A DNA stretch of 64,000 bases from an uncultured Bacteroides sp. (lineage in GTDB: Bacteria; Bacteroidota; Bacteroidia; Bacteroidales; Bacteroidaceae), in contig CASELH010000032.1 of the NCBI GenBank assembly GCA_949288715.1, positions 9,817 to 73,816 on the forward strand, given 5' to 3'. A program made the translations under genes and the position numbers. Below the pieces are notes generated by a model, which searched no databases, was not told where the DNA came from, and was given only the letters and a program-made list of their open reading frames with translations. Shown here in pieces: positions 2,510-31,323 of this stretch (positions within the stretch are counted from its first letter, which is position 1; the number at the start of each line of letters is the position of its first letter).

Positions 2510-4726
2510 ATGAAAAACCTTTCGAAATCAATTCTTGCCATTGCTTTGGTATTCCCATTGCAGGGCTTTGCCCAGACAAATGTTGCCCCTAAAGACACTA
2601 CTGTAGTCAAGGAAAATACAGAGGAAATAAAAGACGCCATCGCCTTGCTCAATGCCTCAAGTGCCAGCGAGCCTCGCGCCGTACCTATCGGACTGCCTGC
2701 TGCCTACACAGTTGTACGCCAGGATGGTCTGCCGGTTACTTATTTCTGGGACCCCAATGCCACCAACCTACACTGGCGTCAGGACGGCTCGCTGCAGAGC
2801 ACCAAGACGTTGCCTATGTCCATGACGGGCATTTACGAGGGTGAAATTGGCGTAGGTGTTGATTCATACACCAAGTTAGGCTCCCGGCAATTCAAGGGCA
2901 ACGCCAAATATGCCACCAACACCTTGGGCAAACATTCTTTCAATGTCGGCCTTTCCGGGGGCCTGGGCAAAAGGACGACTTTCTCGCTCAATGCCTACAA
3001 TAATATGGATCCCGGCAATGTGATGCTTCAGTTCACGCGTTTTGCCGACCGCGTTCAGTTTTACACCGGTACGCTTACCCATCAGTATGATGACAAGGGC
3101 TCTGCTTTCTCCGTGTTCTACAAGTACACCGACATGCACGACCTGTCCAGTACGGTAAAGCAGGCGCCATTCTATTGGGTGGGCGATGGTTCCATTGAGG
3201 AGTTCGATGACTTCGTCATTGGTAAGGATAATTATGGTAACAACGACGGTGTCATTACTTACCAGGACATCCGCACCGGTGAAATGAAGACAGCCAACTA
3301 CAACGACTTGGCTCACAGCCATTCTCATGAAGTCAAATTCATGCTCGACCATAAGTTTGACCCGAAGACTACATTGTTTCTGCGTGCCAAAGCATCGTTC
3401 ACCGATCGTAATGCACTGGAAGATAATACCCAGAACGTCCTTGCCGAGCAAACTCGTGACTATTACGACGGCAGCGGCACTTATACCGGTCGCATACAAC
3501 GCCGTTTGGCTCAAGTCGGTGCCGGCAACATCGAAGATTACATGTTAGTGGCCCGCCTCAACAAGAAGACAGACCGGCACGATTGGAATGTTGCTGTTTT
3601 CGACTACCTGGAACATGTGGACTACGGGACCTCTTCGGTTCAATACGACCACGAGGTGAAAGCCAATCCGATGCGTTTGCGTTTCAACGGTAACCAGTTC
3701 TTCAACTTCAATGCCAGCGGACAGTTTGCCAAAGGTTGGGAAAACAAGGCCGGTGCGTTCCTGTTCGACACTTGGAAGGTACATCCTTTCGTGAAGCTCT
3801 CTTATGGAGCCCGTCTGGAATACTTCAATCTGAACGTCGACTACTCGCAGGATGCCCGCTTTGCCGGCTTCTACCTCGGTGGTCCCACGAAGGATGGCAA
3901 CGGCACCGTTGGCCTCACCAGCGACAGGCTTCATGGTTTCAACTATTCGGTATCGTTCATTCCGACCATCAATTTCACCAAGGATTTCGGATTCGACGGA
4001 GAAATCAACTACATCACCATGTATCGCCATATTCAAGGCTTCTACGGTGCCAATGCTCCTTTGTCGAAGACTCGTCCACACACCTTGGCTCGTGCCGGAT
4101 TCTTTTACAACCATAAACTCTTCAACGTGGTGACGTCTTTCACGTATTCTTATCGTAAAGGCGACTCGGGTCGTATCACCGTGCCGAGCGAAAATCCCAA
4201 TGAAAGCTCTGTCATGGTGCCCTATCATCAGGCCATACGCACCATGGGCTGGAAGACCGACCTTATGCTCACCCCTTTCAAAGGATTCTCGCTCAATGTA
4301 ATCTTTACCCTTCAAAACCCCAAACTGGCCATGTACAAGTTCTCGGCCTTCGGTAAAGACTACGATTTCGCCGGCATGCAGATGCCCAATCTTTCGAAAA
4401 TCTTGCTGGACATCAATCCCCGCTACTCTTACAAAGGATTCAATATCTGGATGAGTGCCCGCTATTCCAGTAAGCGGTATGCTAACGTAGGCAATTCCAT
4501 TGTCTTTGACGGTCGTTGGGAAACCTTTGCAGGGGCCAGTTACAAAATCAACAAACATGCCACCTTCACCGCCAATGTCGTGAACTTCCTGAACACTACC
4601 GGCCCCGCCGGAAACGTTCCGGGGTCGGCTCTCATTACCGACGGTTCACAGTTTGCAGGTTCGCTGATTGCCGGTTCCTACATCCGTCCTTTCCAAATGG
4701 AGTTTGGGCTTAACATTAATTTCTAA
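2510..4726 (+). CDS. TonB-dependent-receptor-like outer membrane beta-barrel (no SusD partner)
   Basis: Signal peptide, 738 aa, amphipathic aromatic-rich strands, C-terminal FGLNINF. Confidence 0.75.
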   Translation: MKNLSKSILAIALVFPLQGFAQTNVAPKDTTVVKENTEEIKDAIALLNASSASEPRAVPIGLPAAYTVVRQDGLPVTYFWDPNATNLHWRQDGSLQSTKTLPMSMTGIYEGEIGVGVDSYTKLGSRQFKGNAKYATNTLGKHSFNVGLSGGLGKRTTFSLNAYNNMDPGNVMLQFTRFADRVQFYTGTLTHQYDDKGSAFSVFYKYTDMHDLSSTVKQAPFYWVGDGSIEEFDDFVIGKDNYGNNDGVITYQDIRTGEMKTANYNDLAHSHSHEVKFMLDHKFDPKTTLFLRAKASFTDRNALEDNTQNVLAEQTRDYYDGSGTYTGRIQRRLAQVGAGNIEDYMLVARLNKKTDRHDWNVAVFDYLEHVDYGTSSVQYDHEVKANPMRLRFNGNQFFNFNASGQFAKGWENKAGAFLFDTWKVHPFVKLSYGARLEYFNLNVDYSQDARFAGFYLGGPTKDGNGTVGLTSDRLHGFNYSVSFIPTINFTKDFGFDGEINYITMYRHIQGFYGANAPLSKTRPHTLARAGFFYNHKLFNVVTSFTYSYRKGDSGRITVPSENPNESSVMVPYHQAIRTMGWKTDLMLTPFKGFSLNVIFTLQNPKLAMYKFSAFGKDYDFAGMQMPNLSKILLDINPRYSYKGFNIWMSARYSSKRYANVGNSIVFDGRWETFAGASYKINKHATFTANVVNFLNTTGPAGNVPGSALITDGSQFAGSLIAGSYIRPFQMEFGLNINF

Positions 4727-27194: not shown

Positions 27195-28121
27195 ATGGGG
27201 CACAAGATAGCCATCATAATACCGGCCTATAAAAGCCGCTTCCTGCGCCAGACGCTCGACTCGATGGCGGCACAGACGTGCCGGGACTTCGCCGTGTATG
27301 TGGGCGACGATGCCAGTCCCGAGCCGCTGGAACCCATTGTACGTGCTTACGAGGGCAAGCTGTCCGTCACCTACCACCGCTTTGCGGAAAACCTGGGCGG
27401 GCGCGACCTGGTGGCCCACTGGGAGCGTTGCATCGCCCTGTCGCGCGAGCCGCTGGTTTGGCTTTTCTCGGACGACGACCTGCTGCCGCCCGACGGCGTG
27501 GAGCGCGTGCTGGCAGCTGCCGGCCGTTATGGCACGGAGAAGGTATTCTTCCGCCTGCCGCTCATCGTGGTGGATGCCGAAGGGCAGCAGAAGTTGGCCA
27601 ACCCGCCCTTGTCCGAGGGCAAGACGTCCGACTACGCCTTCCTGCTCGACAAGCTGAACGGGCGCATCAGTTCGGCAGCCATAGAGTATGTGTTCAGTCG
27701 TGACGTGTGGCGGGTGTCGGGAGGCTTTGTCAAGTTCCCCTTGGCCTGGTGCTCCGACGATGCCACGTGGGCGCGTTTCGCCCACTATGCCGGGGGCATG
27801 ACAAGCGTGCCGGGGGCGCCCGTCTGCTGGCGGAATGCCGAGGGCGAGAACATCAGCAACTCTTCCCGCTTCGACCGCGAGAAGCTGTGTGCCACAACCC
27901 TTTTCATCCGGTGGATAGCCCGTACCTACAAGTGCCGCAAAGGGGACAGTGCGCTTGCGGGGGCTTTGGGGCGCTATGCCCACACCATTTTGCGCTGTTC
28001 GGTCAGGGGAAATTACGGCTTGTCAGACCTCTTGCGGCTATGCGCCGCCTTGGGTGGGATAAGCCTGTCGGCGGCAGGCTATGTGTGCTTGCGCCACTTG
28101 TTTCACATCAAAAGACTTTAG
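27195..28121 (+). CDS. Glycosyltransferase family 2
   Basis: AIIIPAYK, VGDDAS, LFSDDD, AWCSDD. Confidence 0.87.
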   Translation: MGHKIAIIIPAYKSRFLRQTLDSMAAQTCRDFAVYVGDDASPEPLEPIVRAYEGKLSVTYHRFAENLGGRDLVAHWERCIALSREPLVWLFSDDDLLPPDGVERVLAAAGRYGTEKVFFRLPLIVVDAEGQQKLANPPLSEGKTSDYAFLLDKLNGRISSAAIEYVFSRDVWRVSGGFVKFPLAWCSDDATWARFAHYAGGMTSVPGAPVCWRNAEGENISNSSRFDREKLCATTLFIRWIARTYKCRKGDSALAGALGRYAHTILRCSVRGNYGLSDLLRLCAALGGISLSAAGYVCLRHLFHIKRL

Positions 28122-28123
28122 CT

Positions 28124-29449
28124 ATGAAACCTAAGATTCTTTTCATCACCCCTTATATCCCTTATCCCTTGGATTCGGGTGGAAACCAAGCCTTCTTCAA
28201 CATGGTCGATTACCTTCGCCGCAGCATGTCGGTGTCCATATTGCTGTACCCCCGCACCGTCGGGCAGAAAGCGGATGTGGAGCAGCTGAAGGCTTTGTGG
28301 CCTGATGTGGGCTTCTTTCTTTATGAGCCGAAGAAAGAGGAGGAGCCCATACCTTTTGTGAGGCATCCCCTCTACTACAAGTGGCTGCTGAAGGCGCAGG
28401 CATCCATCAAGCGCAAGCTGAGAAGGCAGCTTAGGAAGATACCCCGGCTGGCGGGAAGGGATGCGGGAATAGACGTGATGCGGCAAAAGACTGTCATTCC
28501 GACTTCCATATTTGAAAGGTTGGATAGCGGCTACTTGAATTTTGTGACCCGCACGGCACGGCTGGGGTTTGACATCGTACAGGTGGAGTTTTACGACCTT
28601 ATCTCGCTGGGGTATGTCTTGCCGGACGATGTGGAGACCATCTTTGTGCACCACGAGTTGAGGTATGTGCGCAATGAAAACGAGATGGCGCTCTTCCACG
28701 AGGTGACGGCAGAAGACCGCATGCTTTTCCGCATTGCGAAAGACTATGAGCGCGGCGCCTTGAACAGCTACAAGCACGTGATAGCCTTGACGGACATAGA
28801 CCGGAAGCTGCTTGAGGAGTTCCTGGGGCGCAAGGAGCGCATTTATGCGTCGCCGGCGGTGGTGAATATGTCGCAAGATGGCAAGGGAGACTTTGTGCCT
28901 TGCACAGCCGGCAGGCTGACTTTTGTGGGAAGCGAAAGCCATACGCCCAACCTGGACGCCGTGGTGTGGATGTGCCAGGAGGTGATTCCCCGCCTGCGCT
29001 TGCGGGGAGAGAAGTTTACCTTCCAGGTCATAGGGAAGTGGCGGTCGCCCTATGTGAAAGAGTTGTGTCGCCTTTGCCCGGAGATGGAGCTGATGGGCTA
29101 TGTGGATGACTTAAGGGCTTTCTTAGAAGGCAGTATAGCTGTGGTGCCCATCCGCATAGGCAGCGGCATGCGGATGAAGATTCTGGATGCCGTCACCGCA
29201 CGCTGCCCCTTTGTCACCACTGCCAAGGGGGTGGAGGGCATCGACCTGGAGAATGGCCGCGAGTGCCTCATGGCTGATGACCCCGATGCCTTTGCCGATG
29301 CCATTATCCGTCTGGCTGGCGATGCAGAGTTGCAGGAGCAGCTGGCCCTGCGTGCGGAGGCGAAGTTGCAGGCTTTGTACAGCCCGGGGCAGATGCAGCA
29401 GCGCCGGCTGGACATCTATAAGGGCATCTTGCAGCACGGCGACATGTAA
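28124..29449 (+). CDS. Glycosyltransferase family 4
   Basis: ILFITPYIPYPLDSGG, FVGSESHTPNLDA, VVPIRIGSGMRMKILDA. Confidence 0.88.
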   Translation: MKPKILFITPYIPYPLDSGGNQAFFNMVDYLRRSMSVSILLYPRTVGQKADVEQLKALWPDVGFFLYEPKKEEEPIPFVRHPLYYKWLLKAQASIKRKLRRQLRKIPRLAGRDAGIDVMRQKTVIPTSIFERLDSGYLNFVTRTARLGFDIVQVEFYDLISLGYVLPDDVETIFVHHELRYVRNENEMALFHEVTAEDRMLFRIAKDYERGALNSYKHVIALTDIDRKLLEEFLGRKERIYASPAVVNMSQDGKGDFVPCTAGRLTFVGSESHTPNLDAVVWMCQEVIPRLRLRGEKFTFQVIGKWRSPYVKELCRLCPEMELMGYVDDLRAFLEGSIAVVPIRIGSGMRMKILDAVTARCPFVTTAKGVEGIDLENGRECLMADDPDAFADAIIRLAGDAELQEQLALRAEAKLQALYSPGQMQQRRLDIYKGILQHGDM

Positions 29450-29451
29450 AC

Positions 29452-29497
29452 AAGACCATTTCTCCTCCCCACCGGGACACTGCCCCTTCCCGCCCTT
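29452..29497 (+). repeat. 46-bp direct repeat, left copy
   Basis: aagaccatttctcctccccaccgggacactgccccttcccgccctt; 44/46 identical to 30447-30492. Confidence 0.9.
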
Positions 29498-29536
29498 TTC
29501 AATGCGGGCCTTGTTGATATTCTGAACGGAAAGTGC

Positions 29537-29544
29537 TATCTTTG
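29537..29544 (+). promoter_or_regulatory. Bacteroidetes -7 promoter element for the Rpn gene
   Basis: TATCTTTG 27 bp upstream of the ATG. Confidence 0.6.
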
Positions 29545-29570
29545 CGCGTAGAACGAAAATATGCTCTCTT

Positions 29571-30419
29571 ATGGCACGATTCATCAACCCCTTCACCGAT
29601 GTGGGCTTCAAGCGCATCTTCGGGCAGGAAATCAACAAAGACCTGCTGATAGACTTTCTCAACAGCCTGCTGGCAGGGGAAAAGCACATTACGGATATCC
29701 GCTTCTTGGACAAAGAACTCTTGGGCAATACGGTAGAAGACCGCTCTTGCATCTACGACGTTTACTGCACAAACCAAGACGGGGAGCAGTTCATCGTGGA
29801 AATGCAAAACCGGAGCCAGCAGAACTTCCGGGAACGGGCTCTGTTTTACCTTTCGCAAGCCATTGCGAGGCAAGGGGAACGGGGAGCAGCTTGGCGCTTC
29901 GAGCTGAAAGCTGTCTATGGCATCTTCTTCATGAACTTCCGTTTGGACAGCATGGCGGACAAGCTGCGCACAGATGTTGTGCTCGCCGATCGCGACACGC
30001 ACGAACAGTTTACTGACAAAATACGTTATGTATTCCTACAACTCCCTTCTTTTCACAAAGAAGAAGCAGAATGCGAGACTGATTTTGAGCGTTGGATTTA
30101 TGTACTGAAAAATATGGAAACACTGAATAGATTACCTTTCAAAGCCCGGAAATCCGTATTCAAGCGTTTGGAAGACATTGTGGACATTGCATCGCTCTCC
30201 AAGGAAGATCGGATTAAATATGATGAAAGCATAAAAGTGTATCGGGACAATCTCGTCACCGAAGCCTATGCCATCGAAAAAGGTCTTGCCCAAGGACGAG
30301 CACAAGGTCTTGCCCAAGGGCGTGCCGAGACAGCACGCAATCTGAAAAGAATGGGCATGGACACACCTTTTATAGCTCAGGCTACTGGTCTTACTGCCGA
30401 AGAAATAGAAACTCTGTGA
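29571..30419 (+). CDS. Rpn family recombination-promoting nuclease / putative transposase (PD-(D/E)XK)
   Basis: FINPFTDVGFKRIFG, IYDVYC, FIVEMQN, FRERALFY; C-terminal GLAQGRAQGLAQGRAE...IAQATGLTAEEI. Confidence 0.92.
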   Translation: MARFINPFTDVGFKRIFGQEINKDLLIDFLNSLLAGEKHITDIRFLDKELLGNTVEDRSCIYDVYCTNQDGEQFIVEMQNRSQQNFRERALFYLSQAIARQGERGAAWRFELKAVYGIFFMNFRLDSMADKLRTDVVLADRDTHEQFTDKIRYVFLQLPSFHKEEAECETDFERWIYVLKNMETLNRLPFKARKSVFKRLEDIVDIASLSKEDRIKYDESIKVYRDNLVTEAYAIEKGLAQGRAQGLAQGRAETARNLKRMGMDTPFIAQATGLTAEEIETL

Positions 30420-30446
30420 CACGGATTTCTCAAAAATCGGCGGGAT

Positions 30447-30492
30447 AAGACCATTTCTCCTCCCCAGCGGGACACTGCGCCTTCCCGCCCTT
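30447..30492 (+). repeat. 46-bp direct repeat, right copy
   Basis: aagaccatttctcctccccagcgggacactgcgccttcccgccctt, followed 5 bp later by TATCTTTG. Confidence 0.9.
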
Positions 30493-30543
30493 GCCTTATC
30501 TTTGTCCGTTACATAGCGCAATGATAAAAAACAGGTAAGGATT

Positions 30544-31227
30544 ATGGGAAAAGAAACTTCTGAACGGATACAGACTTCGCTGCTGAACAGCGCGGAAAAG
30601 AAAGCCTTGGTGTGGCTGGCTGCACGCCAGCCCCGGTGGATGACGTCGGACATGCTGACGTGGTTCGGCGTGCTGGGCACGGTGGTTTATATGGTGGGCG
30701 GCATCCTCTCCAACGGCAATGTGCTGTGGTTGTGGCTGGCTTCCTTTGGGCTGGTGATGCACTGGTATGGCGACAGCCTCGACGGCACGCTGGCACGGGT
30801 GAGGAACACGCAGCGCCCTGTGTACGGCTTCTTCATCGACCACTCGCTGGACGCGGTGACTACGTGCATGATATTCTTCGGCGCGGGCTTCTCGCCGCTG
30901 CTGCGCATGGACGTGGCGCTGGCGGCACTGGCGGGCTACCTCTGCCTGTCCATCTACACCTACGTGTGCACCATTGTGAAGGGCGAGTTCCGCCTCACCT
31001 ACGGCAAGCTGGGGCCTACGGAGTTCCGCCTGCTGCTCATCTTGCTGAACGTGCTCTACATGTACACACCGTGGGGCGAATGGCATTGCGAAGTATTGGG
31101 CGGCTTGTGGAGCGCGTTCGACCTGGTGGGCGCAGTGGTGGCCGTGGTGTTGTTCGTCATCTTCTTCGCACAGTTTGCTGCCGACCGGCGCGCCCTTTCC
31201 AAGCAAGACCCGCTGAAGCGTTCCTGA
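30544..31227 (+). CDS. CDP-alcohol phosphatidyltransferase family protein
   Basis: DSLDGTLAR..R..YGFFIDHSLD matches the CDP-alcohol phosphotransferase motif. Confidence 0.9.
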   Translation: MGKETSERIQTSLLNSAEKKALVWLAARQPRWMTSDMLTWFGVLGTVVYMVGGILSNGNVLWLWLASFGLVMHWYGDSLDGTLARVRNTQRPVYGFFIDHSLDAVTTCMIFFGAGFSPLLRMDVALAALAGYLCLSIYTYVCTIVKGEFRLTYGKLGPTEFRLLLILLNVLYMYTPWGEWHCEVLGGLWSAFDLVGAVVAVVLFVIFFAQFAADRRALSKQDPLKRS

Positions 31228-31250: not shown

Positions 31251-31323
31251 GATTAGCGTTTAGTGTTTAGTGATTAATGCCATGCGGACAGGCATATTAA
31301 TCACTAAACACTAAACGCTAATC
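31251..31323. repeat. Heptamer palindrome, perfect 28-bp arms
   Basis: gattagcgtttagtgtttagtgattaat / attaatcactaaacactaaacgctaatc with spacer gccatgcggacaggcat; between convergent genes. Confidence 0.85.

Follow-up and report, generated by a model that had tools for sequence, protein, structure and literature searches.

The question raised by this locus is how a lone nuclease gene came to sit, precisely bracketed by direct repeats of 46 bp, in a Bacteroides chromosome. The gene encodes a protein of the Rpn family. Few 'putative transposase' annotations are as abundant as Rpn genes. The gene is found in a 64,000 nucleotide stretch of DNA (the window) from contig CASELH010000032.1 of an uncultured Bacteroides sp. 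(assembly GCA_949288715.1); coordinates are those of the window unless another contig or locus is named. The locus offers a clean pair of filled and empty sites, with exact joints, for an Rpn gene. We favour the view that a foreign fragment of roughly 950 bp, carrying Rpn, was inserted once, through offset joints that duplicated 46 bp of the target. This mode is known as insertion with long target duplication (ILTD), and we give this reading a probability of roughly 0.6.

The repeat-bracketed gene and its empty site

The two copies of the repeat are at 29452-29497 and 30447-30492, both on the + strand. They are identical at 44 of 46 positions and their spacing is 995 nt. Exactly two sequences in the window match the 46-mer with three or fewer mismatches, and none did so in 100 shuffles. 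Across the whole 3.28 Mb assembly, the copies bracketing Rpn are again the only ones. The possibility that the 46-mer is a generic, genome-wide repeat was rejected on this basis. Between the copies are 949 unique bases (29498-30446, + strand) with a single open reading frame (ORF). This ORF (29571-30419, + strand) encodes Rpn, a protein of 282 amino acids. The match to the PF12784 (PDDEXK_2) profile is full length and scores 225 bits, against a cut-off of 27.4 (E 1e-66). The TIGR01784 model ('Rpn family recombination-promoting nuclease/putative transposase') is also matched (113.6 bits, cut-off 52.1). The consensus for the −7 element of Bacteroides promoters is TAnnTTTG. Reading of the insert identifies a predicted −7 box of this type, TATCTTTG (29537-29544, + strand), 26 nt 5′ of the Rpn ATG. 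An earlier note on this DNA had described a cassette, with its own promoter, between two copies of a 46 bp sequence identical at 44 positions. Re-measurement returned the same coordinates.

Upstream of the left copy is a gene for a GT4 glycosyltransferase (28136-29449, + strand; PF13692, E 5e-20; start uncertain), the stop codon of which is 2 nt ahead of the repeat. Downstream of the right copy is a CDP-alcohol phosphatidyltransferase gene (30544-31227, + strand; PF01066, 24 bits against a cut-off of 22). The predicted −7 box of this gene, also TATCTTTG (30497-30504, + strand), begins 5 nt past the right 46-mer. It is intact and just outside the duplication.

The earlier note predicted an empty site in which the GT4 stop codon would be followed by one repeat, the promoter and the CDP-alcohol transferase gene. 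Such a site exists in a sister species, G023 (CALUJC010000072.1, contig C72). Here, the order is the GT4 stop codon, AC, one 46-mer, GCCTTATCTTTG and the CDP-alcohol transferase gene. The Rpn insert is absent. The left flank is 89% identical to the window, as is the GT4 orthologue, and the right flank is 96% identical; the CDP-alcohol transferase proteins are 98.7% identical. The two flank matches overlap by exactly one 46-mer, with which both window copies align. The −7 box has the same position relative to this single copy. It had also been considered that relatives without Rpn might keep both copies, and G023 has only one.

Beyond the host species, the G023 sequence was the only copy of the 46-mer among 185,579 species genomes, and no further match was found in metagenome contigs or viral contigs. 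In four more distant outgroup species, there was no Rpn upstream of the CDP-alcohol transferase homologue. The guanine-plus-cytosine (GC) content of the insert is 0.48, compared with 0.58 in each flank. Because the outgroups lack Rpn at this gene and the insert has a foreign GC content, insertion is the parsimonious polarity, rather than ancestral presence.

The filled site is also present in six independent contigs of other metagenome samples, where Rpn is 98-100% identical. Hence, the structure is not an assembly artefact. Both copies are readable in six strains, and in five of these position 21 of the 46-mer is C in the left copy and G in the right copy. This common difference indicates one old insertion event, probably in an ancestor of the host Bacteroides species. 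In one strain (L042), the right 46-mer bears left-type variants, which hints at exchange between the two copies.

A separate change has occurred next to the repeat in two strains (L041, positions 213-2381, and L042, positions 48-1631; compare window 27195-29449). In place of the GT2 and GT4 genes, these strains have a single non-homologous gene encoding a 722 amino acid GT2-GT4 fusion. The replaced stretch extends to base 1 of the left 46-mer, and the stop codon of the fusion gene overlaps bases 1-2. The change is an allelic substitution in a polysaccharide locus with its breakpoint at the repeat edge. Since it stops at the left 46-mer, the block of repeat, Rpn and repeat behaves as part of the right flank, which is conserved next to a variable polysaccharide locus.

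Long target duplications at Rpn, YhcG and Fic genes

ILTD of restriction-modification (R-M) systems was reportedly described by Nobusato and co-workers in Gene in 2000. A later study by Furuta, Abe and Kobayashi (NAR 2010; PMC2853133) documents filled and empty pairs, with no other mobile element and with duplications of more than 30 bp and of variable length. It describes two 46 bp cases in H. influenzae, with 44/46 identity between copies. It also states that 46-47 bp duplications at R-M systems are genome-unique and overlap the 3′ end of the upstream gene by 2-15 bp. Furuta and colleagues suggest a role for double-strand breakage, and amplification by way of the repeats.

The window locus is an indel between related genomes with both flanks aligned (89% and 96% to G023). 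Both 46 bp copies align with one copy in G023, and the duplication exceeds 30 bp. The insert, at 949 bp, is smaller than 20 kb and has no mobility gene, and the repeat is not multi-copy. Homologues of R and M genes were not found in the cargo, which is a lone Rpn gene. Window Rpn shares the ILTD insertion mode and is outside the R-M set. The likeness to ILTD of R-M systems includes the filled and empty pair, the genome-unique duplication of more than 30 bp, the deviant GC content of the insert and the lack of a transposase or integrase. It extends to a duplication that starts inside the upstream gene's 3′ end or right at it, to amplification via the repeats and to a selfish or defence-type nuclease as cargo. 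Conversely, the cargo of R-M ILTD is an R and M pair and here is a single gene, of the type encoding a toxin plus intragenic antitoxin. The host here is Bacteroides, a member of a phylum not among the taxa given in the accessible portions of PMC2853133. ILTD is already described for R-M genes and the phenomenon is not new; what the locus adds to this known insertion mode is Rpn as cargo and a further group of hosts.

Flanking repeats were scored as the best ungapped direct repeat between the 400-450 nt on one side of each Rpn ORF and those on the other. The same screen was applied to 2,122 ORFs of at least 150 amino acids in the host genome, and generic repeat families were then removed. Flanking repeats scoring at least 20 were found for 15 of the 2,122 ORFs. 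Locus-unique repeats of at least 30 nt surrounded four genes only, and no ordinary gene. Besides window Rpn, with its duplication of 46 nt, these are two genes for YhcG/DUF1016 PD-(D/E)XK nucleases and one Fic/helix-turn-helix gene. The first YhcG gene (387 amino acids; C42:34628-36028, corresponding to L138 1229-2629) and the second (C10:36610-38038) each have a duplication of 49 nt, and the Fic gene (C8:37370-38641) has one of 30 nt. YhcG matches the PADLOC candidate PDC-S02, and Fic matches PDC-S04/SoFic.

G023 (contig C39) has an empty site, with exactly one 49-mer, where the C42 YhcG gene is inserted. This is a second filled and empty pair in the same genome comparison. The insertion is directly upstream of a resident YhcG paralogue, and its 49-mer target folds as a strong terminator-like hairpin (z −7.3). 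The 49 nt repeat of the YhcG gene on C10 copies the 3′ end of the neighbouring gene, and the G023 site is also filled. An empty site for Fic was sought in G023, where a different 1.5 kb segment is present instead, amounting to a substitution. A hairpin or terminator as the common target feature was considered and dropped; only the 49-mer of the C42 YhcG gene folds strongly. Candidate flanking repeats of 31, 66 and 139 nt accompany YhcG loci elsewhere.

The earlier note had described the repeats as a footprint for Rpn mobility. They are indeed a concrete footprint of Rpn gene movement, and this footprint is not specific to Rpn. Because YhcG and Fic genes carry it too, the scar is no proof that the Rpn protein moves its own gene. 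The host genome points to a wider range of cargo for ILTD. The locus links Rpn, as well as the candidate defence genes YhcG and Fic, to the ILTD route of R-M systems, itself poorly understood. This suggests that one general recombinase-free route takes lone defence or toxin genes into gene-dense chromosomes and leaves the neighbours undamaged.

The earlier note also asked whether other Rpn paralogues have long flanking repeats. Three loci elsewhere do, each with a repeat unrelated to the 46-mer. The other nine PF12784 loci of the host genome have neither the 46-mer nor flanking repeats. The surveys drew on modest samples with some redundancy. In the first, of 72 loci from Bacteroidales genomes, most of the long repeats proved to be tandem Rpn arrays or generic families. 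One locus (L060), from an 'uncultured Phocaeicola' (CALUJS010000017.1), has a 44 nt flanking repeat that is 100% identical between copies and unique in its genome. This 44-mer consists of the last codons of an upstream S24/CI-like gene and the cysS promoter. The Rpn gene of L060 has only 29 nt of its own leader, ends within the right copy and would use the duplicated promoter. At one joint, 7 nt (GCTGTGA) are common to the native Rpn 3′ end and the target, and so microhomology is visible. The right copy has diverged at this locus in other strains. The second survey covered about 70 valid loci in the genus and added two locus-unique cases. These are a 31 nt exact repeat at L329 (G134:C10) and a 135 nt repeat, with 96-97% identity, at L313 (G141:C1).

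Several other candidates were excluded as target duplications. The 103-mer at L090 is generic, with at least 40 copies in its genome, and the repeat at L331 is of a heptamer type. The 76-mer on C97 and the 88-mer on C51 have at least 20 and 6 genomic copies respectively. The window itself has a perfect 28 nt inverted repeat with a 17 nt loop, made of TTAGTG(A/T)-type heptamer units (31251-31323), between the convergent CDP-alcohol transferase and DUF5686 genes. Heptamer arrays related to this palindrome produced the false matches at L090 and L331. Two dispersed families of the host genome give gene-flanking direct repeats by chance. The first is a 73-76 nt element with two hairpins, found at C97:3144-3219 and in at least 20 other places. 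The second is an 86-88 nt promoter-plus-terminator unit, found at C51:48988-49075 and in 5 other places, which may be a small RNA gene family.

Head-to-tail arrays of Rpn cassettes are common in relatives. They comprise 2 to at least 9 units, each with a promoter and ORF, with a period of about 0.97-1.2 kb (L066/L339, B. acidifaciens-like; L049; L052; L340; and L067/L074, Parabacteroides sp. Marseille-P3160). We considered whether such arrays derive from a repeat-cassette-repeat structure and rejected the idea. In B. acidifaciens, B. caecimuris and T. forsythia they are plain tandem duplications without a bracketing target copy. Only a strain variant of L060 (L274, positions 3818-3947) ties an array to the repeat. 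Here, another Rpn leader and ORF, identical to the first, begin after the right 44 nt copy, and the contig ends before the array does. The arrangement is one of tandem amplification via the flanking repeat.

Routes by which the gene may have arrived

According to the reading we favour, a foreign fragment of roughly 950 bp, with one Rpn gene, would have entered the 95 nt spacer between the GT4 and CDP-alcohol transferase genes. The two joints would have been offset, leaving 46 bp of target on both sides. The joining would be recombinase-independent, illegitimate and associated with a break. In one variant, a staggered break would be filled in on both sides, with the fragment captured between. 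In another, a polymerase would switch template to the donor and then back to a point upstream. In either variant the length of the offset would be arbitrary. Selection would keep events that duplicate DNA over those that delete it, because duplication spares both the upstream gene's end and the promoter downstream. At L060, the duplication would even donate a promoter to the incoming Rpn gene. The toxicity of the cargo and its value in defence would retain the insert afterwards, and the repeats would later permit tandem amplification and possibly precise loss. Among the mechanisms considered, we prefer break repair by illegitimate joining to circle integration and self-transposition, though only tentatively, at somewhat short of even odds.

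Kingston et al. (2017; PMC5350276) note that rpn genes rarely move in the laboratory and that sites of action are hard to identify. RpnA makes 3′-OH ends and promotes RecA-independent recombination, and primer-template switching at such nuclease-made ends is favoured for Rpn-promoted recombination (PMC5350276). Zhong et al. (2023; PMC10400941) stated that rpn genes lack target duplications and found no evidence of autonomous transposition. We agree with that study on variable ends and on arrays. Conversely, a minority of Rpn genes have long target duplications here, with one plain case that has an empty site and three candidates.

Several observations weigh against the ILTD-type reading. Scars are rare: locus-unique repeats, of 31-135 bp, flank roughly 3% of roughly 140 Rpn loci from genomes. 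None of about 65 scorable metagenome loci (80 were fetched and the set is highly redundant) had such repeats. Most Rpn genes may therefore move otherwise, or may have lost the scar. Empty sites are verified for two events only, window Rpn and the YhcG gene on C42. An exact empty site for L060 was not found among species representatives; G071 has a different spacer and G067 has other small genes. The 15 Rpn, YhcG and Fic ORFs account for all four hits among the 2,122 ORFs screened (hypergeometric probability about 2e-9), a figure for a category defined after the hits had been seen. A staggered cut, template switching and circle integration leave an identical scar, and so sequence cannot separate them. 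Microhomology at the two joints in the window cannot be judged without the donor locus.

The best surviving alternative is integration of a circle, the model of the earlier note. That note saw the 46-mer as 'att-like', in the sense of an attachment (att) site. A circle of roughly 995 bp, with the Rpn cassette and one 46-mer, would enter by a single crossover with the chromosomal 46-mer, either homologous or site-specific, and would yield exactly the repeat-cassette-repeat order. All of the locus-unique repeats are at least 30 bp, as expected under a minimum homology length. The repeats are also recombinogenic, to judge from the tandem amplification at L274 and, in L042, from variants common to the two copies. 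Such a circle would be released by excision from a filled site and could re-enter empty sites in the same species, and this explains spread among strains already having the site. However, first arrival is left unexplained, since a circle able to recombine here must have had 46 bp of this intergenic spacer beforehand. The 46-mer is nowhere else in the genome; beyond the host species, species-representative genomes gave the single G023 copy, and metagenome and viral contigs gave none. Seven assemblies showed neither a circle junction nor a tandem form of the window cassette. The repeats of different loci are unrelated and so offer no common att core; nor is there a recombinase close by. The neighbours within about 10 kb of Rpn are all metabolic or glycosyltransferase genes, with no integrase or transposase gene among them. 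We thus consider arrival on a circle unlikely. The 'att-like' label does not survive, and the 46-mer is better described as a duplicated local target. Other Rpn insertions have unrelated repeats of 31-135 bp.

A second alternative makes Rpn an autonomous one-gene element. The nuclease would cut the target with a long stagger and place its own gene there, as an unconventional PD-(D/E)XK 'transposase'. It is in keeping with this that three of the four genes with locus-unique repeats in the genome (one Rpn and two YhcG) encode PD-(D/E)XK nucleases. R-M systems, the known cargo of ILTD, also encode nucleases (PMC2853133), and RpnA promotes recombination independently of RecA (PMC5350276). Set against these points, Fic is not a nuclease and has the same scar, which is in any case rare among Rpn loci. 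The duplication lengths of 31-135 bp argue against a molecular ruler, and published comparative work gives no evidence of autonomous transposition (PMC10400941). There are also no conserved ends for a protein to recognise. When the cassette was compared with about 120 other Rpn loci using blastn, DNA homology started at the ATG and stopped before the stop codon. With 40 YhcG loci included, homology of the insert was again inside ORFs only, and conserved element ends were rejected. No inverted repeats were found at the ends of the insert. We therefore judge self-mobility of Rpn to be improbable. A broader form of the idea holds that solitary PD-(D/E)XK nuclease genes, including Rpn, YhcG and, by extension, restriction enzymes, are one-gene mobile elements. 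The nuclease would nick the target twice, tens of bases apart, and its own gene would be captured. This is a long shot. If true, it would be a form of self-mobility that needs neither transposase nor end sequences, and the only scar would be a long, variable target duplication.

Least probable by far is that no insertion took place: chance cases of genes between dispersed repeats do exist (the generic families at L090, C97 and C51), and deletion between direct repeats would recreate a one-copy site such as that of G023, but the 46-mer has two copies only, the outgroups have no Rpn at the CDP-alcohol transferase gene, the insert is compositionally foreign and a deletion origin of the G023 state still needs the repeat-cassette-repeat structure to be made first.

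Known classes of mobile DNA were also compared with the locus. Insertion sequence (IS) elements and DDE transposons likewise make discrete insertions with direct target duplications. Their duplications are of fixed length, 2-14 bp, and accompany terminal inverted repeats and a transposase. Here, the duplication is 46 bp, lengths range from 31 to 135 bp between events, and neither terminal inverted repeats nor a transposase is present. An IS or DDE identity was rejected on these grounds. Campbell-type site-specific integration (attL/attR) and integron cassettes share with the locus direct repeats that bracket DNA and, in the case of cassettes, a small, gene-sized unit. They differ in that the locus has no recombinase gene, and its repeat copies the local target and is not common to other copies of the element. 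Nor do Rpn cassettes have in common an imperfect palindrome of the attC kind. A site-specific integrating element or integron cassette was rejected, there being no recombinase and no att core shared with other events. Phage carriage was rejected because viral contigs gave no match.

A fixed 'ruler' of about 46 bp was entertained for the ILTD-type duplications. Lengths of 44, 46, 49 and 49 bp were found here, and Table 2 of Furuta et al. (PMC2853133) gives 46, 46 and 47. The idea was dropped after cases of 31, 66, 135 and 139 bp were found. Taken together, the locus is neither evidence of Rpn as a transposase nor evidence of the 46-mer as an attachment site. Its value lies in extension of the ILTD route and in testability; the locus supplies concrete material with which the route could be tested in Bacteroides that are genetically tractable.

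Features of the Rpn protein

Rpn proteins are described in the literature as PD-(D/E)XK nucleases and as toxins with an intragenic antitoxin and an anti-phage function. The window protein has in common with the published Rpn/YhgA-like nucleases (PMC5350276, PMC10400941) the profile match and C-terminal repeats of 4 amino acids, and it has a putative acidic/Q core motif. It is further alike in being a single-gene unit with variable ends and, in relatives, tandem arrays. The two differ in family branch; window Rpn belongs to PF12784 and E. coli RpnA-E belong to PF04754. By reading of the sequence, the putative core motif is IYD63VYC ... FIVE77MQ79, which has the PD-(D/E)XK-type pattern D ... E-x-Q. 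The core residues of RpnA are D63, E82 and Q84 (PMC5350276).

The tetrapeptide repeats (GLAQ/GRAQ; coding region 30280-30327, + strand) were delimited by a direct repeat and a strain alignment. There are 4 units in the window allele (282 amino acids) and 5 in the other six strains (286 amino acids), a difference of one 12 nt unit. The C-terminal domain of RpnS/RpnL has 4 amino acid repeats that vary among strains (PMC10400941). Hence, the copy number variation matches a published feature of the Rpn family. A GTG at 30237, 15 codons 5′ of the repeats, is a possible internal start of the RpnS type and fits the published spacing of 8-20 residues. In nine other loci (L044-L047, L063, L068, L080, L085 and L107; about 3340-3830 in each), a full-length Rpn gene is followed directly by a fragment encoding the C-terminal third (residues about 175-282) of another Rpn. 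Such stand-alone fragments may be separate antitoxin genes resembling RpnS, or may be what is left of an older Rpn after a newer one displaced it.

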